Positions 31,959 to 57,998 of a stretch of DNA of 64,000 nucleotides are shown in pieces; within the stretch, counting starts at the first letter, position 1; each line of letters starts with the position of its first letter. The DNA is from Pseudomonadota bacterium. Lineage in GTDB: Bacteria; Myxococcota_A; Bradymonadia; UBA4248. The notes under the pieces were generated by a model that worked only from the letters and a program-made list of their open reading frames with translations, was not told the DNA's origin and did not search any database. The stretch is from contig JAFRYG010000150.1 of assembly GCA_017441205.1 (NCBI GenBank), positions 3,931-67,930 of the forward strand. The letters are read 5' to 3'. A program made the position numbers and the translations under genes.

Positions 31959-31973
31959 CGGAATCAGAATTCC

Positions 31974-32591: not shown

Positions 32592-32855
32592 TGTTTTCTC
32601 CTTCGCTCAAAAGAAAATTAAACGGACGACCTCCGTATTTTATTTTATTCAATTATATCAGCATAATCAATCCGACACAAGAATAAACAGTTATGATTCA
32701 TAAGGAGAAATGGGCTTCAGTAGCAAGGGGGCAGCTGAAGTGGAACACCTGCGATCGCAGTCCCACAGATACGTCGACATCCTGGCTTCGGCGACAGATG
32801 AATCAGTGCCCTTTGGGGCGCTATATTTGTCTCTGTGCTGCAGTTCACATCTGCT

Positions 32856-35800: not shown

Positions 35801-35870
35801 GAACATTTTGCTCATCGCATGCAGTCAGCAATATGCCCAAAATAATCAAATAAAGATGTCGACTTTTCAT
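32856..35870 (-). CDS. Secreted trypsin-like (S1) serine protease with 9 tandem about 50-aa cysteine repeats and a C-terminal hydrophobic helix + basic tail.
   Basis: Signal peptide MKSRHLYLIILGILLTAC. Catalytic triad blocks TAAHC, DIAL, GDSGGP. The repeats 'CGDNIVNN.E.CDGS.FKGNKT.C.QWDSKYSAGNVSCT..CEIDYS.C' are encoded by near-identical DNA units at about 33020..34340. The tail reads LPVLWLAVIGAGAVLRRKKQ. Confidence 0.85.
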   Translation of the reverse strand: MKSRHLYLIILGILLTACDEQNVPPSFGTNAQPILYGTLDTDKPEVVSLFVPDVRDTVYKTCDSDFVFLCAFLYGDNYTCATNDKKNYCLEKCSKPASTSFCRNNNGYVMTSHGICKAIEGGNVFIEDTSSANQLCAGGCNISQTDCDSGGTTDYLECRDEDAEQCSPLRCLMSPRLIYCLPTCSASGQTTKQCSEGHTHVFQCKNVNGTQMWAPLDESGYDCKSKCNDAGTDCDGFGPDLPPAEGTVPGDTYCTGTLIHPQWVLTAAHCVTDTESEFITESEDNEIAKVGIGYNENALIPYDTAGAEYFFYHPEYQSTDDFALNDIALIKLNKPIGSDVAAPVPPLPKWLAFAPDGLPEMMVTSGFGVDENGVSGKKMSISIPTTHYCGTYNPEAGETCDVGFVHIEGCHPNKEYCEEYGYYDATVPVSIPYHTMYAPYNDGGHCSGDSGGPTFYTVGGKRYVVGVTSYGDPPCRTFNVSTAVQDYYDWIISIAPEVAGQYKEICGNGYDDDGNDKIDCDDPACSCCGNGKLDNLENCDGSIFSNNKTKCADWDSMYSAGNVACTKSCEIDYSQCIVTANCGDHILGDGELCDGSVFKGNKTQCVQWDSKYSAGNVSCTSSCEIDYSKCTLAPYCGDNIVNNSELCDGLQIIDDKTQCAQWDSKYSAGNVSCTSSCEIDYSKCTLAPYCGDSIVNNDELCDGSNFKGNKTKCIHWDTKYSAGNVSCTNDCEIDYSECILAPHCGDNIVNNNESCDGSSFKGDRTQCIQWDSKYSAGNVSCTNDCRIDYSQCTLRPYCGDNVINNYELCDGAAFVENKTQCAQWDNKYTEGTVGCTKDCKIDFSQCIATPYCGDNIVNGDEQCDGSAFEGNRNHCRQWDSKYNSGLVKCTEDCKIDFSQCVLTPYCGDDIVNNGEPCDGNFFADDKIKCEQWGYKYSNGDVSCTKDCEIDYSNCYATVVHVDEHPDCTAVPLKSKHSKLPVLWLAVIGAGAVLRRKKQAVLRQN

Positions 35871-35988
35871 GATTCACTCATTCTTCAGACAAGACACAAT
35901 AACCATGTTCAATGGCAAGACGCCGCAGCGCCCTGTACTATACACCAATCCTGTGTTTTTACTGAATAAAATCAGCCCTGATAAAAAA

Positions 35989-36046
35989 GCGCGAGCGTAT
36001 TGGCGAAGCCAATAGCGAGCGCATGTGCGGCGTATGAAATAGCCGC
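35989..36046. repeat. REP-like element pair (gcgcgagcGTATTGGCgaaGCCAATAGCgagcgc, then gcggcGTATGAAATAGCcgc) that doubles as a minus-strand terminator for 36088..38604.
   Basis: Same core as the other REPs. On the minus strand the first hairpin is followed by TTTTTTAT. Confidence 0.55.
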
Positions 36047-36087
36047 ACCAATAAAAAAGAGGCAATTTTGGGCAAAGATGTTGGAAT

Positions 36088-38604
36088 TCATGGTTTGCAT
36101 TGAGGCTTTCTGGTTATGCCAGGCGTCGTTTTCCAGCTCGCGGATTTTTTTATCTTACAATAGTTATTATCAGATAATCCTGAATAATTGAACATTCCAT
36201 CTGCCTTAGTGCCAGCAGTAACAGTCCATCCGGAAAGATCCTGATTAAACGCCTTCGCCAGTCTGAACATATATTCCATATTCTTGACATTGGAAACCCG
36301 CCATTTGTTCAGAGGTTGGTTAAATTTAGATACTTTTCCATACAGGACCGATTTATCATTTCCAACACCGGCATTATCAAACATACACTTCATCGTAGTG
36401 ACTTTGGATACGTCCCAGGTGTTCAATGGCTGATTGAAGCTCGGAGTTCCTGCAAACATTTCAGACATGTCGGTAACTTCTCCGACATTCCACTTATCAA
36501 GCGGATAATTGAATTTTAATGCCTTCTTAAACATTCCCGCCATCGTTTTGACTTTTGAGACGTTCCAGTCATTCAGAGGCTGATTAAAACTATATGCCCC
36601 CGCAAACATATGAATCATATTCGTTGCACTGGAAACATCCCATTTACTGATATTCTGATTGAAATTATGCGCCAAATTAAACATGGATTGAAAACTGGTG
36701 ACGTTTTTGGGGTTCCATGAAGAGATATTTCCATTAAACGAACTTGCCTGACAAAACATGTGGTACATATCAGTCACATTGGTCACATCCCAGCTGTCCA
36801 GAGGTTGATTGAATTTTGATGCTCCCGAAAACATCGCACGCATCGTCGTAACCCTGGAAACATTCCACTTGTCAAGAGGCTGATTAAAGCTGGAATTGTA
36901 CTGAAAAACACCATGCATTCCAGTAACCTGGGAAACATCCCAATTTTCGATATTGACGTTAAAGTTCGAGCCATGAAACATGCCCCGCATATTCGTCATT
37001 TTGCTTGCATCCGGAATATCGACTGTGGATATTTGTGATAAGTTGTCAACATTACAAAAAGCAAATGGTCCTAAACCAACCGGGCCAAATGATTCAATTT
37101 TTATCAGATTATTGTAATTATTCGATAATTCAACAATCGATTCATTACCATTTGTTCCTGTATATGAACAAAACGCAAATCCGTCGTACTGCCCGCTAAT
37201 CTTTACGGTATATTCATCAGCTTCTGTATAAGTATGTGACATCTTAGGTGAACTACAGGAATCAATATCATCACTTGTTCCATCGCCCCAATTGACCTTA
37301 AACACACAATTTGTACCAATGGGAAGTACAAGTGTTTTATTGTCTTTATCAAACCGCCAGACCGTAACAAACTCTTTCGGTGCACATCGTCCATCAGCAC
37401 GACACTCATACCCATCAAGGCATTGTTTGCTATCAGTACAGCGTGTAGTACACCGATAGCCGACGGCGCTGTCACAGAAACCATCTTTTCCGCAGTTATC
37501 ATCTACACGGCAGGATGCACCCAATTTTTCACCGGATTCATGTTTATCATGCATGTGATTGTTATTAGCATCAATATATTTGCATACTTTATCACAGTAG
37601 CAATCATTATCCTTACATCCCGGATCATCCTTGCAGCTTTTATCATCTGTACAGGCGCCGGGAAAATAGCAACCGCCATTGGGTAAACACCCTTTTTCGC
37701 AGGACGAAGGACATATACATCCGCCATCATCTTTCCAGCCATTTTTACAACTTTCGTCACGCACACACAAGCCATCATCATCACATTTTCCAGTAACACA
37801 ATATTCCGGACATGAACACTGCTGAGCGGCATCACATCCATTCTGACAATTGGCCGGACAACAATCGCCATTTATATTACAACCATTCTCACACTCCAGA
37901 GCACACAAACAGACACCAGCAGCATTGCATCCATATCTGCATTTTGCATTACAGCAGATATTCCCATCTGCGTCGCATTTGTATTGATCAGTTAAATCGC
38001 CATTTCTAGGACAATCATCAGGACATTTGCAAACGCCGCTCTCATCACAGCCACGTTGACAATTCTCAGGGCAATTGCACGTACCATCCGGGCTATATCC
38101 ATTTTGACACTCCAGCTGAGGACAACTGCCATCTTCGCCACACAATGCTTCACACTGGATATTACATTTGCATGAACCATCTTCATTATTGGCTTCATCT
38201 TCATTCAAGCCATTATTGCAGCTGCACGAACCATTTGCTTTCCATCCGATTGTACATCCTTCTATTTGTCTGCATGAACCATCCGGCATCCAGCCCGCGA
38301 TACAGCTCTTGCATGCTCCATTTCGATTCGTCTCACACGGATTTCCATTATTTTCTACCGGTTGGCATCCCGTCTTATCTTCATTACATTGATACACACA
38401 TTTTTCAGCCAGCGACCAGTAGATATGGGATGTATTATTCTCTTTATCATGAGAGCTGTTAACGCCATCCGAACATTCATACAGGACACCGTTAGTACAT
38501 ATTGTATCACCCGGTTTGCAGTCTGCATCCATTAATTTATCATCACAGCCAGTCATACAGAATGCGATTGTTATCGACAAAATCAGATATTTTTTGAACA
38601 TCAT
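36088..38604 (-). CDS. Lipoprotein with an N-terminal C/N/G/D-rich low-complexity cysteine region and a C-terminal array of DUF285/BspA-type repeats.
   Basis: AAGGAG RBS. MMFKKYLILSITIAFCMTGC lipobox. More than 10 repeats of F.....FNQ.L..W(D/N)VS.VT.M..MF. Confidence 0.75.
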   Translation of the reverse strand: MMFKKYLILSITIAFCMTGCDDKLMDADCKPGDTICTNGVLYECSDGVNSSHDKENNTSHIYWSLAEKCVYQCNEDKTGCQPVENNGNPCETNRNGACKSCIAGWMPDGSCRQIEGCTIGWKANGSCSCNNGLNEDEANNEDGSCKCNIQCEALCGEDGSCPQLECQNGYSPDGTCNCPENCQRGCDESGVCKCPDDCPRNGDLTDQYKCDADGNICCNAKCRYGCNAAGVCLCALECENGCNINGDCCPANCQNGCDAAQQCSCPEYCVTGKCDDDGLCVRDESCKNGWKDDGGCICPSSCEKGCLPNGGCYFPGACTDDKSCKDDPGCKDNDCYCDKVCKYIDANNNHMHDKHESGEKLGASCRVDDNCGKDGFCDSAVGYRCTTRCTDSKQCLDGYECRADGRCAPKEFVTVWRFDKDNKTLVLPIGTNCVFKVNWGDGTSDDIDSCSSPKMSHTYTEADEYTVKISGQYDGFAFCSYTGTNGNESIVELSNNYNNLIKIESFGPVGLGPFAFCNVDNLSQISTVDIPDASKMTNMRGMFHGSNFNVNIENWDVSQVTGMHGVFQYNSSFNQPLDKWNVSRVTTMRAMFSGASKFNQPLDSWDVTNVTDMYHMFCQASSFNGNISSWNPKNVTSFQSMFNLAHNFNQNISKWDVSSATNMIHMFAGAYSFNQPLNDWNVSKVKTMAGMFKKALKFNYPLDKWNVGEVTDMSEMFAGTPSFNQPLNTWDVSKVTTMKCMFDNAGVGNDKSVLYGKVSKFNQPLNKWRVSNVKNMEYMFRLAKAFNQDLSGWTVTAGTKADGMFNYSGLSDNNYCKIKKSASWKTTPGITRKPQCKP

Positions 38605-38615: not shown

Positions 38616-39392
38616 TTAAAATGCAACCTGAAATGAAGTGTAGAGAGGAGATATCTTTAAAGATAAATCAGCATTGTCTTTGTGGTGTTTGTATTTATAG
38701 CCATAGATGCCGGCGAGTACGGCGCCAGTCACCGTCATCGCAGTACCGGCACCGACAAACGCCCACCCCAAAGAATGCATCCAGTTTTCAGTATAGGTGT
38801 CGGGAGCAAATCCCATTCCATTATGATAGCTGGCAGGTTCGGATGACAGGGCCATCCCCAGTCCGGTGGCAGCAAAAGCAAGTCCACCAATGCAGATGCC
38901 GGTACCGGCCCACATGATCGATCTATAAGCCTTGATATCTTCGGATCTGTCGAGGATTGCTTTTTTTAAATTCTCTATTTCGCGCTGGTAACCTTCGATA
39001 CTTTCCGGAGATGCTTCCGGATGAGCAACAATATATTTTTCCGACCACAGTCTGTCGAGTAAATATTTATCAACGACAAATCGTTCAGTATTTTGTGTCG
39101 CTTTTTGCAGATAGAATAAGTATTTCTCATTATCATTTTTATTTTTATGGATACGTGCAATCGTATAATTGAGACTTGGTGAAAACTCACAAATACCTTC
39201 GAGCTGTCTGGATACCTTCAATGCCTGATCCCAGTTTCCGCTTTTGTATTCCAAATTGAGCTGTTCAAATCCCTGAACCCATTTTGGATTCTGATCAAGA
39301 TCATTGCAGTTGTCTGCATAGGCATTCGAAATTGCAATACAACAACACACACACACCAGGAATGCATGCAGGCAAAATCTTCCTTTTTTCAT
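38616..39392 (-). CDS. Secreted protein with a Gly-zipper hydrophobic C-terminal region. It is a possible distant paralog of 31974..32591 and is co-oriented 12 bp upstream of the DUF285 gene.
   Basis: Signal peptide MKKGRFCLHAFLVCVCCCIAISNAYA. GxxxG-rich segments (WAGTGICIGGLAFAATGLG, GAGTAMTVTGAVLAG). C-terminal ...SPLYTSFQVAF. Confidence 0.6.
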   Translation of the reverse strand: MKKGRFCLHAFLVCVCCCIAISNAYADNCNDLDQNPKWVQGFEQLNLEYKSGNWDQALKVSRQLEGICEFSPSLNYTIARIHKNKNDNEKYLFYLQKATQNTERFVVDKYLLDRLWSEKYIVAHPEASPESIEGYQREIENLKKAILDRSEDIKAYRSIMWAGTGICIGGLAFAATGLGMALSSEPASYHNGMGFAPDTYTENWMHSLGWAFVGAGTAMTVTGAVLAGIYGYKYKHHKDNADLSLKISPLYTSFQVAF

Positions 39393-39807: not shown

Positions 39808-42336
39808 TCACTTTTTCTTCTTAATGTAAGCAGCTCCGGAGACTGTCTTCATAAAGTCATCAGCTTTTTGATGGTATTTTCTTCCCATGGGATCATCCGC
39901 ATAGAAATTGGTCCCGTCATATCCGTAAACCGTAATATAATGTCCGGCGTTTGTCCAGTAACCAGCTTTTCCGTGATATACGACAACATAACCACCGGCT
40001 TTGAGCGTATCAATTATTTTATTCTTATCCTTCCCGGCAACATAATTGCAATCGATGTTGTATTTGGAAACCGTTTGAATTGTGCACATTCTGTTATCTG
40101 AATACGTTCCCCGTATGTCCCTGTTTTCGGAACCGGTTTTTTTAAACTCATCAGCAATCGTTTTTGGGGTAATTGCTTTAGTTTCTGCCAATGCCGAGAG
40201 CGCATTGGCCATTGAAGTGGGACCACATCCGTCCGATCCAATCGAACAACCGGAACAGGAATATTGTGTGCCTCCCCATTGGCCATCGCCCTGCGCATAG
40301 TTATTCGTTGCACCTACAAAATACGTCAGATTGTCCACTTTGGCGCCGTTCGTCTGTACATCGCTCGCCAAAACAAAGTATTTATTATCTTTATATGAAA
40401 TCTGATACCACTCTGGAGTCCAGAAGCTTTTTTTCACTTTACCGATGATTTCAAATGTCTCTCCCTTTTCCATAGTCCCGGCGATCTGAGCCACTTCGCT
40501 CGTATTGGGTGCCGTAATTCCCGAAGTATGTGTCTCATTGAGCAAAGCATTTGTATAATTGGGCGCAGGGAACTTATTTTGCGGAGATCGCCGGTATTGC
40601 ATCTTATTTTTGGCCGTGCCCATAGGTTTGCAAGGACAATTCATAGTTCCGCCGCACCCGTCGCTGACTTCGCCACATTCCATAAGCTCCGAACAGGCAT
40701 AGGGAATGCATTTATCAGTAATAATTGTCAGCGAGTGGTTGCAGTTCAGGAATGCATCCAGGCCACTGTCATCCATATAATGCCTGTTTCTGGGATCATC
40801 AAAATAGATCCTGTCATTTTCGCTGTCATATCCATAGACCATGACATTGCGGTCAGCTTCCCAATAATCCGAACCATCTTCGCCTTCATCAGCGATGATA
40901 TACCAACCATTTTTAAAGGCTTCCAAAAGCTTTTGTTTGGATTTATCACGCACGGAAGCATCGTTCTTCTTACTCTTGACGCAATTCATGCCATTCGTGT
41001 TATCGACATGTTCAGTGGTAAGGCGATACTCCTTTTCGATAAATTTGCGAACATGATCGCTCGATTTTCCAAACGTAGGACTCATTTTGTCCGCAACTTT
41101 ATCCGGTGTAATGGAATCATCTTTTTTAATGGTTGAAATTGCATCGGCAACGGAAACGGGGATACCGCCCATCTTTTCAATTGTGTAATCGCTAATCCTG
41201 GCATCTTTCCAGCGCGTATCCATTTGATAATAATTGTTGGACGGTACAGAAATATTTTTCAGTGACGGAACCTCCAGATCATTGATACGTTCAATATTTG
41301 CCGAACGCAGATAACCTTTGAATTCATGATACTGTACGAGCAATATATCCCCGACAGCACCTACGATATCGACAACTTCCCCCTTCGGTATTTTGGCTAC
41401 GATCTGCGAGGGCTCATTGGGACGATCGGCATACAGATCCTCATTCGGGAAATTATGCTGCGGCGTGCGATGCAACTGTATTTCTTCAGCATTGGGATTA
41501 GCTTCGTCGGGTTTTACGCGCCCCTGGGGAATAGTTGCAGAAGCATCTGCCACACACGCACTGGTATCCAGCGAACAATCCTCATTGCATGCCAATGCCT
41601 TACCTTCCGGGAGGTGCATGCCTTGCGGGCAGGAAGCATTGCCGCTCATACTGCCACCGTCGCAGATTTCTTCCTCATCCAACTTGCCATTGCCGCACGG
41701 CCCGGAAGATTCATCCGGAACGCATGCATCCGTATTTAAGGTACAATCCGAATTGCAGCTGAAATCCGCATCCGACGGCAGGTACATACCTTCGGGGCAT
41801 GATGCTTTGTCGCTCACGCTTCCACCATCACAGACCTCGCCATCGTCCAGCTTTCCATTGCCGCATAAATCTGCCGATGCATCGGGGACACAAGCGTCAG
41901 TATTAACTGTACAATCCGCATTGCAGCTCAGACTGGCATCCGCCGGCAGGTGCATTCCCTCGGGACAAACGGCTTTATTGCTCATGACTTCGCCGTCGCA
42001 AACTTCGCCTTTCTCCACCTTCCCGTTGCCGCAGAGTTTTTTGGATTCATTCGGTACGCATGCATCTGTATTCAGTGAACAATCTGTATTGCAGCTCAGT
42101 GCGGCATTCGACGGCAAGCTTGTTCCCTCAGGACAGGATGCTTCATCACTCAATAATTTATCATCGCAAATCTCATCCTCATCCAGCACGCCATTGCCGC
42201 AAAGCGAAGGATCTGCCGAAGAAACGGATTCACTGGAACACGCGGATGCCATCAAGACAAATGAAAGCAAGGTAACCCATTTGAACCGTCTTGTAATGTT
42301 GTGCGTTACCCTTTCAAAAGACAGTGAATATTTCAT
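39808..42336 (-). CDS. Secreted lipoprotein with 5 Cys repeats followed by two SH3b + C39-like (papain-fold, Peptidase_C39_2-type) units. Only the second unit carries the canonical Cys/His.
   Basis: AAGGAG RBS. Lipobox LMASAC. The repeats are CGNG.LDEDEICD...SCPEG..LP...SCN.DC.LNTDACV x5. Unit 1 reads YYQMD.RW...GGIPVSVADA...VMVYGYD, with no Cys or His. Unit 2 reads YAQGDGQW...CGPTSMANAL...AGHYITVYGYD, with Cys at about 40225 and His present. Confidence 0.8.
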   Translation of the reverse strand: MKYSLSFERVTHNITRRFKWVTLLSFVLMASACSSESVSSADPSLCGNGVLDEDEICDDKLLSDEASCPEGTSLPSNAALSCNTDCSLNTDACVPNESKKLCGNGKVEKGEVCDGEVMSNKAVCPEGMHLPADASLSCNADCTVNTDACVPDASADLCGNGKLDDGEVCDGGSVSDKASCPEGMYLPSDADFSCNSDCTLNTDACVPDESSGPCGNGKLDEEEICDGGSMSGNASCPQGMHLPEGKALACNEDCSLDTSACVADASATIPQGRVKPDEANPNAEEIQLHRTPQHNFPNEDLYADRPNEPSQIVAKIPKGEVVDIVGAVGDILLVQYHEFKGYLRSANIERINDLEVPSLKNISVPSNNYYQMDTRWKDARISDYTIEKMGGIPVSVADAISTIKKDDSITPDKVADKMSPTFGKSSDHVRKFIEKEYRLTTEHVDNTNGMNCVKSKKNDASVRDKSKQKLLEAFKNGWYIIADEGEDGSDYWEADRNVMVYGYDSENDRIYFDDPRNRHYMDDSGLDAFLNCNHSLTIITDKCIPYACSELMECGEVSDGCGGTMNCPCKPMGTAKNKMQYRRSPQNKFPAPNYTNALLNETHTSGITAPNTSEVAQIAGTMEKGETFEIIGKVKKSFWTPEWYQISYKDNKYFVLASDVQTNGAKVDNLTYFVGATNNYAQGDGQWGGTQYSCSGCSIGSDGCGPTSMANALSALAETKAITPKTIADEFKKTGSENRDIRGTYSDNRMCTIQTVSKYNIDCNYVAGKDKNKIIDTLKAGGYVVVYHGKAGYWTNAGHYITVYGYDGTNFYADDPMGRKYHQKADDFMKTVSGAAYIKKKK

Positions 42337-42404
42337 GATTTCTCCTTACTATTGTTCCACCGGAAGTGGGAGTCGTTTACTGGTTTGCAATATCTTACCA
42401 ATCC

Positions 42405-42460
42405 ATGCGGCGTATGAAATAGCCGCATGGCGAAGGCGTATTTGGCGCAGCCAAAAAGCC
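42405..42460. repeat. REP-like element pair (atgcggcGTATGAAATAGCcgcat, then ggcGTATTTGGCgcaGCCAAAAAGCc).
   Basis: Same core. The first hairpin is identical to the second hairpin at 36025..36046. Confidence 0.55.
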
Positions 42461-42658
42461 GAAGCCCCCAAATTAAAAGGCTCTGCTTAACGTATTTGAA
42501 TTTTCTGCTGATAAATGAAATTTTGGCTTGGAGTTCGAAGCGCTTGTTCTTGCCATCGATAGTGGGAGCAGTAGCCCCCACGCTGAAAATAGCGAGGGGG
42601 CCCATGAAGCGGACGAGGAAGAGGCTGAAAAGAGCCTCAATGGCTGTCCAAACGAATA

Positions 42659-45600
42659 TTATTTCCTATAAACGTAACCGATAAGTTTGTCTTTGATCTG
42701 ATTCTCACAATTGGACGCATCCGTGATAAAGAAAGTATTCCCCACTTTGCACTGATAGAGCGCTACAGTATTCTTCTGTTTTGACTTGAATGCATATCCC
42801 ATCGGTCCCATGTTGAAGTTGCCATCACAATTGACGTTTGTTGAAATCTTGGTTTGATAGTGTTGTTTGGAATCTCCAAAACGACATTCATAAAGCATGA
42901 TGGGATCACCAAAAGTAGGTTTATCGCGGTAAATCTTCCAGGAATTTTCATGATGAAATCCATCAGGCGGCATTCTCGTTGTTACCCAACGATTACCCGT
43001 GCTCGAATTGAGATACCTCGCTAACTCCACGTATGGCAATAATTCGAAACCACATTTGCCAGCCCCCGGCTTATTGGCATTGACATAGGTCGACCATGCT
43101 GGTTTTGGTGTTTTGCCATCCTCTCTAACGAGTCCCAGATTCAACCCTTCATGCGCAACATCCTGGTAGCGATGATATATAAAGCTCTCAATGCCTGGCG
43201 TTCCTAAAACATTTTTAAACGCCTTGCAAAGGTAATCATTCTGCAAATTTAGTTGACTGCTATTACCGGGATTACCATTGATGCCATTTTCTGTTAGCTG
43301 GATTTCCCAGGCATAGGGTTTGTCGGGATAATGCTGACGCAGCCAGCCGGACAGGACACCAATATTGCCAAAGGAGATAATAGGCCAATCATTTGCACCG
43401 AATTGGGGTTGTGTTAAATCAGGCGGATAGGAATGAAAAGCGAGCCGCCATTCCCGAGTTCCGAGCTGAGGGACAAGTTTTTGAATAAAGTCTTCGACAC
43501 TCTTGTGTCGCCATGTATCAATACCGTGAGCGAACATGTGATCGAAAGAAATCAGGACCTTAGCTTGCTTTTGTTCTGCACGGATATAATCGTACGCTTT
43601 ATTCCAATTCGCCGCATAATTCTTTACCCAAGGGTCCAATTGACAATCACTGACATCCTTACATCCCATGTTATACCAGTGTGAACAGTTCACTTCATTG
43701 TGTATGACGAAGTCGGCAACTCGTCCGCCTTTATTACCATCATGTTCAATACCATTATAATACCAGGCTAAAAATCCTGCAAAACGGCCATAATCATCGG
43801 CTGCTTCTGGTTTGGTGGCACAAAAAATAGAGGCTGCAGTATATTTGGAATTACAGTTAATCTTAGCCCAATCCGGCACTCCATAGACGATCGCAGTTAC
43901 AACCACACCAGCGTCTGTATATTTTTTAATTTTATCCACATAACTTGTTTTATAACAATATCCCTTATACTTGACTTCACCTTCGCTGCAATTTGTTTTT
44001 TTACTTGGCTGCATATTTGCCCAAACCATATTGAAGACGACGCCGTGTACGTTGCTGTCAATCATTTTTTGCGTATCACCGGCATCCGGCTGAATGCCTT
44101 TAATACTTTTTCTCTTGGGGTAAACATCTTTGTTTATACCACACACTGACTCAACACATGCTTTTCCGTCTGAACATGTACAATTCAGTTTGCCGCCGCA
44201 TCCATCATTGAGAGAGTCACCACATTTCCCGACGTAGTTCGCACAGGTTTTGGGCGTGCATTTTTTGTCTGCCGGTTTGTTCGTTATGACAAAAATACTA
44301 TGCGTATAGTTGAGAAACTCTTCCATACCTTTTTGCATGTAATGTACATTGACAGGGTCATCGACATACAGCGTATCATTGGCTTTATCATATCCATACA
44401 CAGTTAAGAAATGTCTGCTGTTATCGGCTGTCCAATAACTTGCGGCACCTCCTTCCAATGCGACGACATACCAGCCATTCTTAAAGGCTTCCTCTATTTT
44501 TTGTTTTGTATTGCTGCGAGTAGCAGCATCGTTTGCAGTTGTTGAGGTATCTGTTCCATAATTCATTCCCTTGGATGTATCAATATATTCACATTCCAAA
44601 TCAAATTCTCTCTCGATCATTGGGCAGACAACAGCTCTTTCTGTGCCTTCTCCGCTGGTAATATCCTGATAAAGATCCATTTTTTTTGCAATCGTCTCGG
44701 GCGTAATATCTTTGTTGTCTTTAAGTATTGCAATTGCATTTGCCAATGCAGTCGGGCCGCCGCCATGGACGCCAATATTCGTCGTTCTGTACTTTACATC
44801 TTTCCATTTGGCATCATTTTGGTAGTAGTTGGGCGTAGATGCAGATGAATAATCAATCGTATCTACAGGTGAATCATTGATTAATTCTATATTATTGCTG
44901 TGAATATAATATTGGCCGTCATCGAAATCGATCAGATAAGATCCGCCGAGAAATGATTTTTCGCCAACAATTCCATGAAGTTCTACTGTATCCCCCTTAT
45001 TGATGTGACCGACAATTTGTGGTTTTTCTGCATCCCCATGTTCATTCTTTAAAGTGTCATTGGGGTAATGATATTGAGGCGTACGATGAATGGGAATTTC
45101 TGTGAGCGTGTCATGCTTGACAATCCCCTGAGCGGGTTCAGCGGGGCCTGGCGGATCAGGAGGTAGCTCATCCTGCACACATGCACTGGTATTTAATGTA
45201 CAATCCTCATTGCAGGTCAATGTCTGACCTTCGGCGAGATGTGTATTTTCGGGGCAGGATGCAGACTTACGTATGAGGCTGCCATCACAGATTTCTTCTT
45301 CGTCCAAAGCCCCATTGCCGCAGGGGTCTTCCTTTTCGACCGGAATGCATGAACTGGTATCCAAAGTGCAGTCTTCCCTGCATAACAAGCTGGCATCTGA
45401 CGGCAAATATGTACCTTCGGGACAGGATGCAGCCTTGTTAAAGATATCACCATCACAAATCTCGCCCTCATCCAAAGCTTCATTGCCGCAGGGATCAGAG
45501 GATGCTTCAGCAACACATGCATCGGTATTCAATGTGCAATCATCGTTGCAGGTAAAATAGGCATCCGGCGGTAAGTATTTCCCTTTTGGGCAGGATGCAC

Positions 45601-45814
45601 TGCGGCTCAGTTTTTCAGCATCACAAATCTCACCCTCATCCAGCACGCCATTGCCGCAGAGAGCAGAGGGGTCCGAATTATCATCATCAGCACCAACAGA
45701 GCTGACGGATTCGTCAGAACATGCTGCCATCAAAACGCATGCAAGGATCGATGCCCATGCCGAACATTTTGATATGCGATGAGAATTTCCAAATAATAAG
45801 AACCGATCTTTCAT
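42659..45814 (-). CDS. Secreted lipoprotein with 3 Cys repeats, SH3b-like, a C39-like unit with Cys replaced by Gly, and a C-terminal about 500-aa domain that resembles a clan GH-A (TIM-barrel) glycoside hydrolase.
   Basis: Start trimmed to MKDRFLLFGN...ILACVLMAAC (GGAGG RBS). HGGGPTALANA...SRHFLTVYGYD. The C-terminal part has IHNEVNCSHW (NE acid/base-like) and WEIQLTENGI (TE.G nucleophile-like) blocks. The GH assignment is tentative. Confidence 0.75.
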   Translation of the reverse strand: MKDRFLLFGNSHRISKCSAWASILACVLMAACSDESVSSVGADDDNSDPSALCGNGVLDEGEICDAEKLSRSASCPKGKYLPPDAYFTCNDDCTLNTDACVAEASSDPCGNEALDEGEICDGDIFNKAASCPEGTYLPSDASLLCREDCTLDTSSCIPVEKEDPCGNGALDEEEICDGSLIRKSASCPENTHLAEGQTLTCNEDCTLNTSACVQDELPPDPPGPAEPAQGIVKHDTLTEIPIHRTPQYHYPNDTLKNEHGDAEKPQIVGHINKGDTVELHGIVGEKSFLGGSYLIDFDDGQYYIHSNNIELINDSPVDTIDYSSASTPNYYQNDAKWKDVKYRTTNIGVHGGGPTALANAIAILKDNKDITPETIAKKMDLYQDITSGEGTERAVVCPMIEREFDLECEYIDTSKGMNYGTDTSTTANDAATRSNTKQKIEEAFKNGWYVVALEGGAASYWTADNSRHFLTVYGYDKANDTLYVDDPVNVHYMQKGMEEFLNYTHSIFVITNKPADKKCTPKTCANYVGKCGDSLNDGCGGKLNCTCSDGKACVESVCGINKDVYPKRKSIKGIQPDAGDTQKMIDSNVHGVVFNMVWANMQPSKKTNCSEGEVKYKGYCYKTSYVDKIKKYTDAGVVVTAIVYGVPDWAKINCNSKYTAASIFCATKPEAADDYGRFAGFLAWYYNGIEHDGNKGGRVADFVIHNEVNCSHWYNMGCKDVSDCQLDPWVKNYAANWNKAYDYIRAEQKQAKVLISFDHMFAHGIDTWRHKSVEDFIQKLVPQLGTREWRLAFHSYPPDLTQPQFGANDWPIISFGNIGVLSGWLRQHYPDKPYAWEIQLTENGINGNPGNSSQLNLQNDYLCKAFKNVLGTPGIESFIYHRYQDVAHEGLNLGLVREDGKTPKPAWSTYVNANKPGAGKCGFELLPYVELARYLNSSTGNRWVTTRMPPDGFHHENSWKIYRDKPTFGDPIMLYECRFGDSKQHYQTKISTNVNCDGNFNMGPMGYAFKSKQKNTVALYQCKVGNTFFITDASNCENQIKDKLIGYVYRK

Positions 45815-45977
45815 TGTTTTAAACCTCCATACGTGATGTTTTGATGCATGCAAATCGCATTGTACTTTATGTTGAGAGTTTCTGAGTCAAAAGGTATGTT
45901 CCGTGTTTCTGTATGATGCAATCATGCCCCTCTGTATTGTACTTCGCCAATGCAGAGGTTCATATATCACTGTTCAT

Positions 45978-48533
45978 TCATTTCTTTTCGATAAGAGCCA
46001 TATCTCCGCATGTAGTCATAAAATCATTCGCATTTTGATGATACCTTCTCGACATGGGATCATCGACAAAGAAGTCCTCGTCATCATAACCATATATTAA
46101 TACATATTGACCATCATTGGTCCAGTATTTTCCAGTCTGAATTGCAATAACGTATCCGCCGTTCTTGATCGTATCCTTGACAGTATCAATGGAGTTTGGT
46201 TTAATCTCACAACTAATATTATAATATTTCTGTGATGCGTCGCAGGCAGAATCAATATTTGTCCCACCTTCGGCTTCTGCAGCACCAACTATTTTGAATT
46301 TCTCTGCAACTTCGTTCGGTTTAATATCCAAATTGAGGAGAGCCGTGATCGCATCTGCCCAGCAAGTGGGAGCGGATCCGGAATTATCCATATTACAGTT
46401 GGTACAGGAATACGGGGCATTTTTCCATTGGGCATCGGCTTGATAATAATTGATTGTTGCACCGGAAAAATAGGTCAAATCATTAATTGCGACGCCATTC
46501 GTTTCTACATCACTGGCCAGAATATAATATTTTTGATTGTTGTGGTAAATTTGATACCACTCCGGTGTCTTGGAAGATTTCTTCACTCTGCCAAGAATCG
46601 TGATTGGTTCATCTTTTTTTAAATAACCGGCGATCTGGCTCGGTTCAATACCGGTCAAGCCAAAATCATGATCCTCATTTAGTATCTTTGTGTTAGCAAA
46701 CTTGTTTTGTGGTGAACGTCTGTATGGGGTGTTATCCTTCTTGGCTCTGGGCCTCTCTACTTTTGTATTTTCTATAATATAAATCGTATGCAAATGGTTG
46801 AGGAATTCTTCCATTCCTGTCTGCATATAATGGAGATTGAGCGGATCATCAACATACAGCGTATCTTTATCTTTATCGTATCCATAAACGGTAAGGAAAT
46901 GATATTTATCCTCAGGGCTCCAGTAATCTCCGCCCTCGAGGGCAATGATGTACCCCCCCCTTTTAAAAGCGTTTTCCATCGCCTGCTTTGTTTCTGTGCG
47001 CGTTTTATCAGTCTTGCCGGCGTTCATACCGCCGGAAGTATCCTTCTTCACACAATTCAGCTGATATTCAGACATGATCATGGGACAGATGATACCCTTG
47101 TCCGTCCCAATATTGTCTTTGTACTGATAGAGGTCGAGCTTTTTGGCAACCACTGCAGGGGTAATACTTTTATCTTCTTTTAGAATGGCGAGTGCATTCG
47201 CCAACGATGTCGGACCGCCGCCATGTTCACCAATTGTCGATGTTCTGTATGGAGTATTACCCAAACTCTTGTCATTCTGATAGTAATTAGGTGTGGAAGC
47301 TGACGAATAATCAATGACAGGGACCGGGATATTATTCACGCGTTCGATGTTGCTGCTATGAATATAATACTCGCCGTCACTAAACTGAATTCGATAATAA
47401 CTGCCAAGATATGAATTCTCTCCCATGACTCCAAGAAGATCGACGATTTCACCCGTCTTAAGATTGCCGACGATCTGCTTTGGTTCCCCTTTATGATCAT
47501 TTTTCAGAGTATCATTCGGGTAATGATACTGAGGCGTCCTGTGGATGGGTATTTCTTTGAGCGTGGCGTGAACGACTTTTCCTTTTGGGGGTTCACAGGC
47601 ACTCGTATCCAGGGTGCAATTTGCGTTGCATGCCAAAGACTTACCCTCCGGAAGAGCCGTATTTTTCGGGCATGCAGCGGTTTTCTGAATGAGGCTGCCA
47701 TCACAGCTTTCTCCCTCGTCCAGGGCATTATTGCCGCATTTTTCAGGGATTTGAGCAGTCACACAAGCGGCGGTATTCAATGTACAATCCGCATTGCAGC
47801 TAAGGCTGGCATCCGATGGCAATTGCATACCTTTGGGACAAACCGCAGCATCACTCAGGATTTTACCATCGCAGATTTCTCCATCGTCCAGGGCATTATT
47901 GCCGCATTTTTCAGGGATTTGGGTAGTCACACAAGCGGCGGTATTCAATGTACAATTTGCATTGCAGCTCAGGCGCATCCCAGAAGGCAACAGAGTCCCC
48001 GCAGGGCAGGATGCATCATAGCTCAATTTTTCCGCATCACATATCTCGCCATCATCCAGCACACCATTGCCGCACAAAGACTCAGCTACAGCCTGAACGC
48101 ACGCATCGGTATTCAATGTACAATCCGCATTGCAGCTCAGAGCGGCATCAGGCGGCAGCCTCTCTCCTTCCGGACACGAAGCCCCATAGCTCATTTTATC
48201 AGCATCACATATCTCACCATCATCCAGCACACCATTTCCACATAGGATCGGTGCTTCATCCGGAACGCAGGCAGAAGTATTCAAGGTACAATTTGCATTG
48301 CAGCGCAGTCTGGCCCCCTTCGGCAGATGTTCTCCCGCTGGGCAGGATGCTTCATAAGCCAATATTTCAGCATCACACACCTCAGTATCATCCAACGCCC
48401 CATTGCCGCAGATTGGATCGATGACCGGATCAAGCGAACATGCCGCCATCCCGGTAAATGCAATCAAGGAAATCCCTCTGAGTTCCCCTGAAATACGATG
48501 CATTTTTTCGTGAAACGACGGCGAATGTTTCAT
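45978..48533 (-). CDS. Secreted lipoprotein with 5 Cys repeats and two SH3b + C39-like units, both with non-canonical active-site positions.
   Basis: AAGGA RBS. Unit 1 reads EHGGGPTSLANAL...KYHFLTVYGYD (Cys to Gly). Unit 2 reads NSGSAPTCWADAITAL...DGQYVLIYGYD (Cys shifted, His to Gln). The architecture is collinear with 39808..42336. Confidence 0.8.
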   Translation of the reverse strand: MKHSPSFHEKMHRISGELRGISLIAFTGMAACSLDPVIDPICGNGALDDTEVCDAEILAYEASCPAGEHLPKGARLRCNANCTLNTSACVPDEAPILCGNGVLDDGEICDADKMSYGASCPEGERLPPDAALSCNADCTLNTDACVQAVAESLCGNGVLDDGEICDAEKLSYDASCPAGTLLPSGMRLSCNANCTLNTAACVTTQIPEKCGNNALDDGEICDGKILSDAAVCPKGMQLPSDASLSCNADCTLNTAACVTAQIPEKCGNNALDEGESCDGSLIQKTAACPKNTALPEGKSLACNANCTLDTSACEPPKGKVVHATLKEIPIHRTPQYHYPNDTLKNDHKGEPKQIVGNLKTGEIVDLLGVMGENSYLGSYYRIQFSDGEYYIHSSNIERVNNIPVPVIDYSSASTPNYYQNDKSLGNTPYRTSTIGEHGGGPTSLANALAILKEDKSITPAVVAKKLDLYQYKDNIGTDKGIICPMIMSEYQLNCVKKDTSGGMNAGKTDKTRTETKQAMENAFKRGGYIIALEGGDYWSPEDKYHFLTVYGYDKDKDTLYVDDPLNLHYMQTGMEEFLNHLHTIYIIENTKVERPRAKKDNTPYRRSPQNKFANTKILNEDHDFGLTGIEPSQIAGYLKKDEPITILGRVKKSSKTPEWYQIYHNNQKYYILASDVETNGVAINDLTYFSGATINYYQADAQWKNAPYSCTNCNMDNSGSAPTCWADAITALLNLDIKPNEVAEKFKIVGAAEAEGGTNIDSACDASQKYYNISCEIKPNSIDTVKDTIKNGGYVIAIQTGKYWTNDGQYVLIYGYDDEDFFVDDPMSRRYHQNANDFMTTCGDMALIEKK

Positions 48534-48758
48534 GACACTTATCCTTTATGAACAATGATCCAAGATAAGCAAGATCGACCGCATCCGATACTTTTATTTC
48601 TACCCATACAGGTTCTGAGAATGCTGATTAAAAATCGGCTACCTGCTTGAATATAGCAGAGATTTTGTATCCTCTTAAGCATAAATCATCATTTTAATGC
48701 ATTTTTTAGCATGTCCACACGATCCAGGTGTGGCTGCACATCGCACCAAAAGTTCCGA

Positions 48759-48824: not shown

Positions 48825-48862
48825 ACAAAAACAAAAAAGCCGCGCAAATGCACGGCTTTTAG
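48822..48862 (-). terminator. Rho-independent terminator for rpsA (minus strand: aagccgtgcatttgcgcggctt + ttttgtttttg).
   Basis: Hairpin plus T-run on the minus strand, 20-60 nt after the rpsA stop. Confidence 0.6.
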
Positions 48863-51585: not shown

Positions 51586-52009
51586 AAAAACCTCCTGCTT
51601 TCATGAGTACGGGAATTGGAAAACACCGAAACCGTCTTTTGCAAGGCATTTCGATTCATAGCACCCGTATAGCACACTTGATGCAATGAGCGAAATGATA
51701 CTTTTTTTGACCTCACCTCCGCCCGCTTTGCGGCCCCCCTCTCCATGAATGGCGAGGGGATAATGGTATCATTATCTATGACCACAACAATAATACTAAT
51801 AAAAATTAATATATATTATTCCCAAAGTATTCTCAGGAAACAGATTCGCAAATGCATTATGGTCCTCAGTCCTTGTGAATGATTTATCCTTGCATCAGGT
51901 AAGGATTTCCCTGTAGACTTAAGGGCAACGCCAACTTTTAGGCTGTGTGTTGTCACTATACTATGACTATTCAGTGAATCGAGACAGGATCCGAATCAGA
52001 GGAGCTTTT

Positions 52010-55000
52010 ATGAAATCACAAAGACTGTTGTATTCGATGTGTATTTTTGCGGCCATGGGCTTGTATTCATGCAGTGATGATTCAGGCAGCACATCTTCGG
52101 AGGAGAAAGCCATCTGCGGCAATGGAATTCTGGAAGAAGATGAACTATGCGATGACGGCAATACGGAGGCTGGTGACGGTTGTTCGGACGACTGCACGGT
52201 TGAAGCCGGGTGGACCTGCGACAAGCCGGGAATTCCCTGCACAGAAGATGGGCCGGATAAAAAAGCAGTCTGCGGGGATGGCAAAATAACGGGTGATGAA
52301 TCCTGTGATGACGGGAACACCAAAGCTGGCGATGGTTGTTCGGGAGACTGTGCTGTAGAGGATGGCTGGCGCTGCCCAACGCCAGGTGAGCCATGCATCG
52401 AACGTATCGAGGAAGAGGATGCCGTTTGCGGCGACGGATTACTGGATGGCAGCGAGATCTGCGACGATGGTAATATCGAGTCCGGTGACGGCTGTTCGAG
52501 TGAATGCCGCATCGAAGATGGCTGGAACTGTGAAACGCCCGGTGCTGCCTGTGAAAAAACCAATATCGCCGAAGCTGTCTGCGGGGACGGCATTGTTGCT
52601 GATTATGAAGAATGCGACGACGGCAATGCCGAGGCAGATGACGGCTGTTCCTCAAATTGTGCATTAGAGACTGGCTGGCAATGTGAAACACCGGGACAAC
52701 CCTGTGTAAAAGATGTGGTGATCGACGCCGTCTGCGGCGACGGTCAAAAGGCTGACAACGAATCCTGCGACGATGGCAATCTGGATGCCGAGGATGGCTG
52801 TGCGCCCGATTGCACCATTGAGGAAGGATGGACCTGCGATAAACCCGGTGAACCTTGCGTACAAGTTTCTACCGTTCCGGAAGATGTCTGTGGGGATGGT
52901 GAGATCACTGGCGATGAAAAATGCGATGACGGCAATGCAAAGGCAGGCGATGGATGTTCAGACAACTGCACTATCGAAGCTGGCTGGGTTTGCGAAAATC
53001 CCGGCACGCCATGCACAAAGCAGCCCGTAGTTCCCGGAGATGTTTGTGGAGACGGCAAAATTTCCGGCAATGAGAAATGCGATGATGGCAACGCCAAAGA
53101 CGGCGATGGATGTTCTGCCAAGTGCGCCATCGAAAAGGGTTGGACCTGTGCCGAGGCCGGCAAGGCATGTTCGACAGTCTGTGGGGACGGTATCGTTGCA
53201 GGCAAGGAAAAATGTGACGACGGCAATACCAAGGCCGATGACGGTTGTTCTGCCAAGTGTGCCATTGAGGAATCCTACGTATGCAAGACTGCCGGCAAGC
53301 CCTGTACACCCGAATTTGATAACAAAACGAGCATTAAAATTCTTGGCGTGGGCAACAGCCTGATGCGGGACTCGACCGTTTATCTGTGCGATATTCTCGT
53401 CAATATGGGATATAAAAATGTCACGGTTGGCGTGTTATATACCGGCGGCAAGTCGATCAACTATCATGCAGAGAATATGCGCAAGAAAGGGTCGCCCGGG
53501 ACTTACTTTCTCAGTACATGCAAAGATTGTGATACCAAAAGCAAATGTACCGAAACGACCCCCAAAAAGACATATCTGGAAGCCATTAAGTCCGCAAAGT
53601 GGGACTATTTCATCATGATGACCTCTCCTTCCGGCGTAATCGATCTTTACAACAAAGATATTGATTATGTCATCGATACGGTCAAAAAGAATTCACCCAA
53701 AGAACCGGAGTTCGGCTGGGCGCTGACATGGGCATACCAAACGGGCGTTTCGCATTACCAAATGGCATTCCATGGATACAATCAAATTAAAATGTACGAA
53801 GCGGCCGTCATGTCGGTCAAAACCAAGATAGAACCAAGAAAAGATATCTCATTTGTCATCCCTGCGGGAACGGCCATCCAAAACCTCAGAAACGGCATTT
53901 TTGCGAATAATATGAATCGGGATGGCTATCACATGTCCTACAACAATGGTCGGTTTGCGGCCAATCTGATGTGGGCCAAACAAATCACCAAACGACCGGT
54001 CGGCAAAGTCACCTACAAACCGAATAAATATTCCTATACCGACAGGCAAATAAAAGCCCTCAAGGAAGCCGTCGTCAACGCCTATAAAACCCCTTATGCG
54101 GTCACGCGTCCCAGCAAAGGCGTCAACGGAACCTACGTCAAGCCAAACAAGGATCTCCAGAAAATCTTTTCCGATGCAGGCCACAATCTCAAGGATTATG
54201 TCGAAATCCCCGTCGGAGTAACGACAAAAGCCCTGTACAATTCGACGAAACAGGATGCCGATGTATGCAATCTCACGTCTGTATTAATCGACGGTACGAA
54301 ATATTGTTATGCCACACTGGTAAGTGCAGAGACGGGAAGCAAGAGTGCCGATCTTAAGAAACATGCAGCTTCGCGCATCTTTACGCGCTATGAGATCCCC
54401 AATGGCTCATTTATCGTCATCAAATCCGGGTATGAATATCGCGCAGATGGCTGGATTTCCTTCGACAAGGCAACCGCAGCAAAGAACCGGCCTGCTGTCG
54501 TGGATAAACAAATCACCGAGGTGACGGACAAATGGTGGGGGAAATATCAATACCGTGCATTTACTCTGTCCAAAAAAGGAGAACCCAAACTCAGCGACGA
54601 AGAGATGGAAAGCCTAGAAAAGGTCATGTCCATCTTTGTTCCGATTCACCATGACAATGCCGACGATGCTCTCGTCAAGGCGGGTTATGATTTGAGCAAG
54701 TACAAGAAGCTCGATCTGAGCCTGACGCACAAGGCTTATTGGAATTCGAACACAGTAAGCGACTTGCCGACAGGATTGACGAGACCGGACGCAAATAACA
54801 AATTTCCCACCAAACTCTTTGGCGGCGATAAAAACAGTACAGCAGTCAAGTTTGCAACCACGCGCATCTTTACCAAATCAGCAATTCCCAATGGCAGTCT
54901 GATTGTCCTCGTCAAGGGTTATCGTTATACCCCCGACGGTTGGAAGGCCCTTGATGTTTCAAACAAAGGTACAGATCTTCGTCCCAAACCCGTCGTTGCC

Positions 55001-55159
55001 AAGGATGCCAACTCTATCACCGTCGTTGATGATAAGTGGTGGGGTCAGTTCAAATATCGGGCGTTCAACATTACCAAGGCCGAACCGGTTGAACTTACGC
55101 CGCTGGAACAGTATCAGATGGGCGAGGTTTTTGCGATCTATACGCCAGTTTCCAAATAA
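52010..55159 (+). CDS. Secreted protein with about 10 DUF4215/Myxococcus cysteine-rich repeats and a C-terminal SGNH-like hydrolase-fold domain (GNSL block) followed by a duplicated about 100-aa module.
   Basis: GAGGAG RBS. Signal peptide MKSQRLLYSMCIFAAMGLYSC. The repeats are CGDG.I.G.E.CDDGN..AGDGCS..C..E.GW.C. The C-terminal region starts ILGVGNSLMRDS (GDSL-like block I with Asn), which resembles DUF4886/SGNH-fold proteins. The duplicated tail is 'RIFT..IPNGS.IV...GY.Y..DGW...KWWG..YRAF'. Confidence 0.75.
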   Translation: MKSQRLLYSMCIFAAMGLYSCSDDSGSTSSEEKAICGNGILEEDELCDDGNTEAGDGCSDDCTVEAGWTCDKPGIPCTEDGPDKKAVCGDGKITGDESCDDGNTKAGDGCSGDCAVEDGWRCPTPGEPCIERIEEEDAVCGDGLLDGSEICDDGNIESGDGCSSECRIEDGWNCETPGAACEKTNIAEAVCGDGIVADYEECDDGNAEADDGCSSNCALETGWQCETPGQPCVKDVVIDAVCGDGQKADNESCDDGNLDAEDGCAPDCTIEEGWTCDKPGEPCVQVSTVPEDVCGDGEITGDEKCDDGNAKAGDGCSDNCTIEAGWVCENPGTPCTKQPVVPGDVCGDGKISGNEKCDDGNAKDGDGCSAKCAIEKGWTCAEAGKACSTVCGDGIVAGKEKCDDGNTKADDGCSAKCAIEESYVCKTAGKPCTPEFDNKTSIKILGVGNSLMRDSTVYLCDILVNMGYKNVTVGVLYTGGKSINYHAENMRKKGSPGTYFLSTCKDCDTKSKCTETTPKKTYLEAIKSAKWDYFIMMTSPSGVIDLYNKDIDYVIDTVKKNSPKEPEFGWALTWAYQTGVSHYQMAFHGYNQIKMYEAAVMSVKTKIEPRKDISFVIPAGTAIQNLRNGIFANNMNRDGYHMSYNNGRFAANLMWAKQITKRPVGKVTYKPNKYSYTDRQIKALKEAVVNAYKTPYAVTRPSKGVNGTYVKPNKDLQKIFSDAGHNLKDYVEIPVGVTTKALYNSTKQDADVCNLTSVLIDGTKYCYATLVSAETGSKSADLKKHAASRIFTRYEIPNGSFIVIKSGYEYRADGWISFDKATAAKNRPAVVDKQITEVTDKWWGKYQYRAFTLSKKGEPKLSDEEMESLEKVMSIFVPIHHDNADDALVKAGYDLSKYKKLDLSLTHKAYWNSNTVSDLPTGLTRPDANNKFPTKLFGGDKNSTAVKFATTRIFTKSAIPNGSLIVLVKGYRYTPDGWKALDVSNKGTDLRPKPVVAKDANSITVVDDKWWGQFKYRAFNITKAEPVELTPLEQYQMGEVFAIYTPVSK

Positions 55160-55170
55160 ATGACTATTCA

Positions 55171-55194
55171 GAGACGTTCCATCTGAACGTCTCT
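55171..55194. other. Palindrome GAGACGTTC-catctg-GAACGTCTC immediately after the stop of 52010..55159. It is a member of the AGACGT...ACGTCT family.
   Basis: 9-bp perfect inverted repeat. It shares its arms with the palindromes at 23839 and 22076. Confidence 0.5.
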
Positions 55195-55391
55195 CCAATA
55201 CATCACCAACGACAACCAGCGTATCCATGTTCTCCGGACATTCCATGGAATGTTCCGGACTGAGCATGCCCAATTGACGTAATACTTCAATTCTCTGCAA
55301 AAAATACTTATAATACGCCCCGTGTTTGCGTGCGCAAATTTTTGGTCTTTTTACCATTTCTGAGCCAGGAGGCAGCCACGACGGAGGTTAT

Positions 55392-57930: not shown

Positions 57931-57998
57931 CACAAAATCAGGTTATCACAGAGAAAAATTATTGCAGTTGTGATTCAAACGACATTACGGAGGAAATC

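Follow-up and report, generated by a model that had tools for sequence, protein, structure and literature searches.

The gene triplet at the locus

Three adjacent minus-strand genes, here termed A, B, and C, lie between positions 39808 and 48533 of the window, the 64,000-nucleotide stretch of contig JAFRYG010000150.1 (assembly GCA_017441205.1) analyzed in this work. They encode large proteins with signal peptides, in which N-terminal Cys-rich repeats are followed by SH3b-type domains and by units of the Peptidase_C39_2 family (PF13529). A Pfam scan assigned to A and C two Peptidase_C39_2 stretches each, together with SH3_3, and to B a single C39_2 stretch plus DUF5722; ABC (ATP-binding cassette) transporter domains were not detected in any of the three by the same scan. 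The resulting five units are denoted A-N, A-C, B-N, C-N, and C-C according to gene and position, and a six-frame scan of the window with a hidden Markov model (HMM) of the units revealed no additional C39_2-like units. A preliminary description of this DNA had ascribed to all three genes one plan of five Cys-rich repeats followed by two successive pairs of SH3b and C39_2-like domains. The SH3b/C39_2 order stands for A and C; the tandem repeats, each of 56 residues with six Cys, are however four, three, and five in number in A, B, and C, respectively, and B has no second SH3b. As the same description had noted for the middle gene, B carries another domain, DUF5722, where its second unit would be.

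When scanned individually against the Peptidase_C39_2 model (gathering score 24 bits), the units scored 63.5 (A-C), 39.7 (B-N), 37.2 (C-N), 35.7 (C-C), and 19.5 bits (A-N). Although A-N falls below the Pfam threshold, it is tied to the other units by the family profile and by the tree of units described below.

One unit of the five retains the catalytic Cys and His

Alignment of the five units, with verification of the codons, identified the residues at the catalytic columns. The nucleophile column is occupied by glycine in all three N-terminal units (G391 in A-N, within GGIP; G365 in B-N; G439 in C-N), by C704 in A-C, and by S720 in C-C. The His column is deleted in A-N (RN-VM), retained in B-N (H481), C-N (H545), and A-C (H799), and occupied by Q809 in C-C. 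The oxyanion Gln (of NYYQ) and the Asp of the DDP motif are invariant in all five. Cys and His are therefore both present only in the C-terminal unit of A, as the preliminary description had proposed; the Cys is the only one of these residues missing from B-N and C-N, and neither of the two units of protein C has a canonical papain active site. The Cys in C-C that stands four residues past S720 (SAPTCW) was considered as a substitute nucleophile and judged unlikely, as it is positioned one helical turn inside the helix and the His is replaced by Gln.

The family at large conserves what these units have lost. Among the 166 units of the 150 best representatives and the family, aligned to the unit HMM, the pattern Q-C-H-xD was read in 134 fully aligned ones; full-length losses of the Cys all fall within the narrow A/B/C family or in P0009 (P and L numbers denote related proteins and loci, respectively), and the His is missing in one outgroup unit, that of P0104.

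A profile of 26 sequences reaches solved enzymes in the Protein Data Bank (PDB), including the C39-like peptidase 3erv from Bacillus anthracis (E 4.8e-7), the double-glycine protease 6mpz, PeiR (8z4h), and ComA. Its Cys, His, and Asp columns align to GC/eH/DP in 3erv, eCG/nH/DP in 6mpz, and tCc/GH/DP in PeiR. This deeper profile was required, since PDB sequence searches with a single unit or with a five-unit profile returned noise only. An AlphaFold2 (AF2) model of residues 318–594 of C, based on a 41-sequence alignment, has a mean predicted local distance difference test (pLDDT) score of 85.9 and a predicted template modeling (pTM) score of 0.86; a single-sequence AF2 model of residues 272–842 of A (pLDDT 38.5) was not usable. 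In the model of C, a helix begins at G439 and a strand at H545, a papain-like arrangement. Structural comparison with this model gave figures of 16.2 for PeiR, 15.7 for staphopain C, 15.1 for 6mpz, 14.6 for 3erv, 13.7 for ComA, and 10.3 for the C39-like domain of HlyB; the structural neighbors also include streptopain, IdeS, and deubiquitinases. Foldseek concurs on the papain fold, and for the N-terminal part of the model it gives SH3b structures as matches. Its top match was 22oc (“P210 CD lyase”), on which a literature search found nothing. The regions are thus papain folds, as had been predicted from the sequence; the catalytic columns lie where they had been placed, with no conserved Cys/His elsewhere.

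The nucleophile was lost once at the base of an old clade

Relatives of the units are few. A word-indexed homolog search yielded only five and then four proteins, and the informative search was an exhaustive one, by HMMER with the family profile against 1.84 billion representatives; even there, only five proteins match at E ≤ 1e-30. In a neighbor-joining tree, the N-terminal units form one clade and the C-terminal units another, both nested in the family and separate from the canonical outgroup. The N-terminal clade comprises two branches, both with Gly in place of the Cys: one keeps the His (C-N, its ortholog P0002, P0003, and B-N), and the other has lost it via a three-residue deletion (A-N, P0004, P0006, and P0007). 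Since the N-terminal units are monophyletic and both branches carry Gly, the Cys was lost once, early, at the base of the clade, and the His later in one branch. The Ser/Gln state of C-C is shared with P0002 and the fragment P0010, and the corresponding unit of the next relative, P0003, is canonical; this is a separate and later event than the loss of Cys from the N units. Lone degenerate units behind a different Cys-rich region are found in P0009 (Asp/Met) and P0041.

The three genes had been taken for recent paralogs, a view that must be abandoned. In comparisons among the three genes, synonymous differences amount to a proportion of 0.63–0.84, with amino acid identity of 32–65% per domain, so that synonymous sites are saturated and the paralogs are old; the N-unit clade, with the Cys-to-Gly loss at its base, is common to other metagenome-assembled genome (MAG) lineages. 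The relatives derive from gut and faecal metagenomes. The only genome in which the family was found is that of Myxococcales bacterium UBA4248, a genus name reported from pig faeces (PMC8772591), and source contigs sought for P0001 and P0003 are not on record.

The degenerate units evolve under constraint

Comparison of A with its ortholog P0004 (DNA in locus L001) gave a nonsynonymous divergence (dN) of 0.25 and a nonsynonymous/synonymous ratio (ω) of ~0.10 for the degenerate N unit, and dN 0.30 with ω ~0.12 for the intact C unit, by pairwise Nei–Gojobori estimates that are rough, with synonymous divergence (dS) saturated and recombination patches present. Across the eight N units, which span both subclades, 44 of 176 columns are invariant, and the reading frames of degenerate units are intact in every lineage seen. 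The invariant columns include the active-site framework around the lost Cys (NYYQ, GG.P, YW, YGYD, and DDP). Others are peculiar to the N clade, namely a D...GMN motif within an insertion, E533, and N.HYM, as well as D498, D557, and H568. The N-type clade carries an extra insert of ~20 residues. Two Cys residues conserved across units are both missing from A-N, a joint loss such as a disulfide pair would undergo. The N units are under purifying selection, and their slow evolution fits a retained, presumably non-catalytic role; that the degenerate units have been retained, as the preliminary description suggested, is borne out by these comparisons.

The triplet is syntenic in a second metagenome (window 42659–48533 versus L004 10001–15724). 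Most segments of the two are nearly identical (dS 0–0.05), and several sharp patches diverge: B-N (dS 0.24, ω 0.15), where the differences are concentrated in the initial ~70 codons, C-N (dS 0.14, ω 0.30), the second SH3b of C (dS 1.4, ω 0.26), and C-C (dS 0.38, ω 0.5). The patches look like allelic recombination at the locus. Gene conversion between B-N and C-N was rejected as their source, the informative sites being symmetric (15 versus 15 and 9 versus 9). The copy number of the Cys-rich repeat also differs between these near-identical strains, with five copies in C and four in its ortholog P0002 (L004 10001–12406), a gap of exactly 56 residues.

The N unit precedes different C-terminal domains

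Domains have been shuffled behind the N unit. It is followed by an intact C39_2 unit in A, P0003, P0004, and P0006, by DUF5722 in B, and by a domain of ~490 residues in P0007; in P0041 it is itself the last domain. A Cys-rich linker (C..C...C...DGCGG..NC.C; window 40597–40701 and 44123–44272) stands after the N unit in A, B, P0004, and P0006 and is absent from C, P0002, and P0003. The C-terminal ~490 residues of P0007 match no Pfam family; by eye, their sequence reads like parallel β-helix repeats. An open reading frame (ORF) of 856 residues, equal in length to P0007, is present on UBA4248 contig DGWW01000288.1 (L006 9728–12298).

The DUF5722 domain of B (PF18989, residues 578–932) scores 157.6–160.9 bits against a gathering score of 30.5. 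There are 323 DUF5722 homologs at E ≤ 1e-5, hundreds of them standalone proteins, in Myxococcota and Actinomycetota, and the columns of N719-E720 and T854-E855 are invariant in 24 homologs. We found no match to a Pfam glycoside hydrolase family even at E ≤ 10, no solved relative in the PDB with either the single sequence or a 24-sequence profile, and nothing on the domain in a literature search. Enzymes of clan GH-A have a (β/α)8 fold in which the acid/base Glu sits in an NE motif and the nucleophile Glu follows some 100–140 residues further on. The invariant NE/TE pattern fits a putative retaining glycosidase of this clan, an assignment drawn from these two motifs. The repeats in the tail of B, which match no family, are also present in standalone DUF5722 proteins.

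Gene ends, domain coordinates, and neighborhood

The coordinates of the genes and their domains are collected in Table 1. By sequence, SH3_3 is matched above its cut-off of 27 bits by the second SH3b of A and of C (33.2 bits in the whole-protein scan).

Table 1. Positions of genes A, B, and C and of their domains in the window
Feature	Position	Strand	Description
Gene A	39808–42336	minus	842 residues; signal, four Cys repeats, SH3b, N unit (Gly, no His), Cys linker, SH3b, canonical C39_2 unit
A Cys-rich repeats	41548–42201	minus	four
A first SH3b-like domain	41239–41526	minus	Pfam 15 bits, sub-threshold
A N-type degenerate unit	40702–41238	minus	nucleophile position G391 (41164–41166); His gone by 3-residue deletion; C39_2 19.5 bits
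A second SH3b	40306–40596	minus	Pfam SH3_3 25.9 bits alone, 33.2 bits in whole protein
A canonical C39_2 unit	39811–40305	minus	Q682, C704 (40225–40227), H799 (39940–39942), D815; Pfam 63.5 bits
Gene B	42659–45853	minus	1064 residues as listed; signal, three Cys repeats, SH3b-like region, N unit, Cys-rich linker, DUF5722, C-terminal repeat tail
B Cys-rich repeats	45173–45658	minus	three
B SH3b-like region	44834–45139	minus	65% identical to first SH3b of C; no Pfam match of its own
B N-type degenerate C39_2 unit	44273–44833	minus	nucleophile position G365 (44759–44761); keeps H481 (44411–44413)
B Cys-rich linker	44123–44272	minus	C..C...C...DGCGG.LNC.C...; shorter form after N unit of A
B DUF5722	43058–44122	minus	N719-E720 (E720 43694–43696), T854-E855 (E855 43289–43291)
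B tail (residues 933–1064)	42662–43057	minus	132 residues; three LY.C[RK]..G..H-type repeats, conserved Cys
Gene C	45978–48533	minus	851 residues; putative lipoprotein-type signal, five Cys-rich repeats, SH3b, N unit (Gly/His), SH3b, C unit (Ser/Gln)
C Cys-rich repeats	47589–48410	minus	five, 56 residues and six Cys each, CGNG.LD.GE.CD...C..C.L.T.AC
C first SH3b-like domain	47292–47582	minus	Pfam 17.5 bits (weak); AF2 β-barrel matching SH3b structures 2krs and 2kt8
C N-type degenerate C39_2 unit	46761–47291	minus	nucleophile position G439 (47217–47219); keeps H545 (46899–46901), Gln, DDP
C second SH3b	46464–46676	minus	Pfam SH3_3
C C-type C39_2 unit	45981–46454	minus	Cys to S720 (46374–46376), His to Q809 (46107–46109)

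The predicted signal peptides end in ...FVLMASAC (A), ...CVLMAAC (B), and ...AFTGMAAC (C), each of which looks by eye like a lipobox. Within 45812–45853, the ATG at 45814 (residue 14) is probably the true start of B in place of the listed TTG, because the ortholog in L004 has 1051 residues. Promoter-like hexamers are present upstream of C (48650–48717, minus strand), a strong terminator-like hairpin lies just past rpsA (48835–48860, minus strand), and a weak terminator-like site is located between B and A (42462–42483). The triplet probably starts its own transcription unit.

The nearest canonical C39_2 relatives of the units carry PG_binding_1, SH3_3, and GH25 domains, and the viral structural neighbors are endolysins, tail-associated hydrolases, and tape-measure proteins; Peptidase_C39_2 is catalogued among endolysin catalytic domains (PMC8223927), also in a 2026 preprint. 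The genes around the triplet, at 28700–38604 and 51947–60368, encode many large secreted proteins in which Cys-rich repeats are joined to hydrolase or adhesin domains: a 965-residue protein with SH3_3 at its C terminus, a trypsin-like protease, a DUF285 repeat protein (BspA-type) whose N terminus is long and Cys-rich, a protein with eight DUF4215 domains and DUF4886, and two M23-FG-GAP-MopE proteins. Taken as a group, these neighbors look like a lytic or predatory arsenal. Directly downstream of A (38616–39392, minus strand) lies a gene for a 258-residue protein with a signal peptide, a hydrophobic C-terminal part, and no Pfam family; it is syntenic in L004 (18991–19767) and absent beside the single-copy gene for P0004 in UBA4248. 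Farther away, a single ORF of 4015 residues (9679–21726, minus strand) consists largely of tetratricopeptide-type repeats, the matches to the corresponding families falling mostly in its C-terminal half.

Discussion

The explanation that we favor, and hold with about even confidence, is that the SH3b-like domain and the dead C39_2 unit together form a non-catalytic recognition cassette that has been joined to various lytic heads, in secreted or lipid-anchored proteins directed against the walls of other cells. A, B, and C would on this account be old paralogs encoding secreted, probably lipid-anchored, modular lytic proteins of a gut-type myxococcote related to UBA4248. The Cys-rich repeats could serve as a stalk bearing the cassette, in which the SH3b-like domain would be packed on the papain-fold unit. 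Once the nucleophile Cys had been replaced by Gly in the family ancestor, the cassette would no longer have cleaved, and it may have been retained for recognition or positioning, most plausibly on cell-wall (peptidoglycan) material; the preliminary description had suggested peptidoglycan stem peptides as a possible ligand. It would then present whichever domain follows: in A, a C39_2 peptidase with intact Cys, His, and Asp; in B, DUF5722, with its two invariant Glu residues, as a putative glycosidase head; and in P0007, the 490-residue domain. As the second unit of C has lost both its Cys (to Ser) and its His (to Gln), C is probably a binding-only member. The neighborhood of the triplet is consistent with a role in predation or competition.

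Several observations weigh against this explanation. The first SH3b is below threshold by sequence (15–17.5 bits where it is matched), and none is detected by Pfam in B. The estimates of constraint share the roughness of the Nei–Gojobori method noted above. The lipoboxes were recognized by eye, and peptidoglycan is suggested as the target by the domain company that the units keep. The N unit of P0006 is devoid of the entire nucleophile loop, implying that the former active-site cleft is not indispensable in every member. P0004 is encoded by a single gene with no triplet, and the tandem arrangement itself may consequently have no functional meaning. Finally, B-N and C-N, which keep the His, Asp, and Gln, may have residual or altered chemistry.

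Other roles for a conserved but degenerate unit have to be considered. The chief alternative is regulation: within its own protein the N unit might activate or inhibit the C-terminal catalytic domain or cover it like a prodomain lid, or it might serve as an activator of another hydrolase in the manner of the degenerate LytM factors EnvC and NlpD. That it is as tightly conserved as the active unit, always stands N-terminal to a putative catalytic domain where there is one, has a conserved surface signature of its own, and is rigidly packed, at least with the SH3b (pTM 0.86), would all be expected of a regulator; a specific intramolecular partner is nonetheless hard to square with an N unit that precedes three unrelated C-terminal domains and is the last domain in P0041, and protein C is without any intact catalytic partner, which leads us to regard regulation as unlikely. 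Alternatively, the proteins might act on something other than cell walls, such as host or prey surface proteins or gut glycans, with the degenerate units serving as adhesin-like binding domains. The gut and faecal origin of the relatives, the BspA-type DUF285 protein and trypsin-like protease among the neighbors, structural similarity to staphopain, streptopain, IdeS, and deubiquitinases, and the lack of a known substrate for DUF5722 can all be read in this way. However, the PG_binding_1, GH25, and endolysin architectures with which SH3b domains and the nearest sequence relatives are associated, and the M23 peptidases encoded nearby, point to the wall, and a non-wall target seems to us distinctly unlikely.

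The remaining alternatives concern the chemistry of the N units and whether they have any function. It is quite improbable, in our judgment, that the Gly-type units are still enzymes, whether through another nucleophile or chemistry on the papain scaffold or through a new activity of the N-specific acidic and His residues. The retention of His, Asp, and the oxyanion Gln in B-N and C-N, the invariant D498, E533, D557, and H568 with the conserved GMN insert, and the strong purifying selection would suit such an activity, yet no conserved Cys or Ser takes the place of the nucleophile, the two conserved Cys residues behave as a disulfide pair, and half of the N clade (A, P0004, P0006, and P0007) has also lost the His, in P0006 together with the whole loop, while the domain is kept in all. 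A broader proposal, which we would call a long shot, is that the Gly-type N unit is a neofunctionalized papain-fold domain, representing a new class of cell-wall or glycan recognition or a non-thiol chemistry (involving the GMN insert, E533, D557, and N.HYM), and mobile between lytic heads in gut Myxococcota. That the degenerate units are decaying relics serving only as spacers is hardly credible. Catalytic residues have been lost repeatedly and independently (in the N clade, in C-C with P0002 and P0010, in P0009, and in P0041), and ω is higher, at ~0.5, in the Ser/Gln unit of C, as decay would predict; the constraint data nevertheless disfavor functionless relics, because ω stays at ~0.1 across a synonymous divergence that has reached saturation, 44 of the 176 columns do not vary, a specific insert is conserved, and reading frames are intact in all lineages seen.

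The locus offers a natural decay series, comprising an intact unit, loss of the Cys only, loss of Cys and His, a Ser/Gln variant, and a loop deletion, as well as one dead unit type fused to different C-terminal domains, in an uncultured gut Myxococcota lineage whose neighboring genes resemble a secreted lytic arsenal. Should the proposed recognition cassette indeed bind cell walls, it might supply a new targeting module for engineered lysins and a handle on what gut Myxococcota attack.

Comparison with known systems

The five units are homologous to the Peptidase_C39_2 family of YvpB/3erv type, which includes predicted endolysin and tail-hydrolase domains. They share with it the framework order of Gln, Cys column on the N terminus of a helix, His on a strand, and Asp-Pro, and in both cases the units occur in one polypeptide with SH3b or peptidoglycan-binding modules and with another domain of lytic type. 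Unlike canonical members, all of the units but A-C are missing the Cys, the His, or both, A-N lies under the Pfam threshold, the N-type clade has its ~20-residue insert and its own invariant residues, and the proteins have a Cys-rich stalk and are apparent lipoproteins. In the SH3b-NlpC/P60 endopeptidases of YkfC type, an SH3b domain is packed on a papain-like domain as one unit (PMC4600125), similar to the AF2 model of C; the papain-like domain of those enzymes is active, whereas in the present proteins it is the dead unit that pairs with the first SH3b. The pseudomurein endoisopeptidases PeiW, PeiP, and PeiR (family C71; PDB 8z4h) are of archaeal-virus or archaeal origin, act on pseudomurein, and have an intact triad, in contrast to the N units.

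The C39-like domain (CLD) of HlyB, from the ABC transporters of RTX toxins (PDB 3zua), likewise has the C39-superfamily fold without the catalytic Cys. However, that domain lies in the cytoplasm at the N terminus of an ABC exporter, where it binds the secretion substrate in unfolded form, whereas the present units, in proteins with signal peptides, are predicted to be extracytoplasmic, stand after SH3b and before lytic-type domains, and descend from the C39_2 branch and not from the bacteriocin-processing C39 branch. To our knowledge, few pseudoenzyme domains have been described in the C39/C39_2 branch outside the HlyB-type transporters. In other hydrolase folds they are familiar: the degenerate LytM factors EnvC and NlpD and the non-catalytic NlpC/P60 domain of RipD lack catalytic residues and are kept to bind peptidoglycan or to regulate its hydrolysis. 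These belong to other folds and families (M23/LytM and NlpC/P60) than the C39_2 units, the likeness being that a degenerate hydrolase domain is kept. Pseudoenzyme domains that preserve fold and cleft without chemistry are a recurrent route to targeting or regulatory modules. Degenerate hydrolase domains used for binding or regulation being already known, the triplet introduces no new principle; what it adds, as a modest advance, is a case in the C39_2 branch, from an uncultured lineage.

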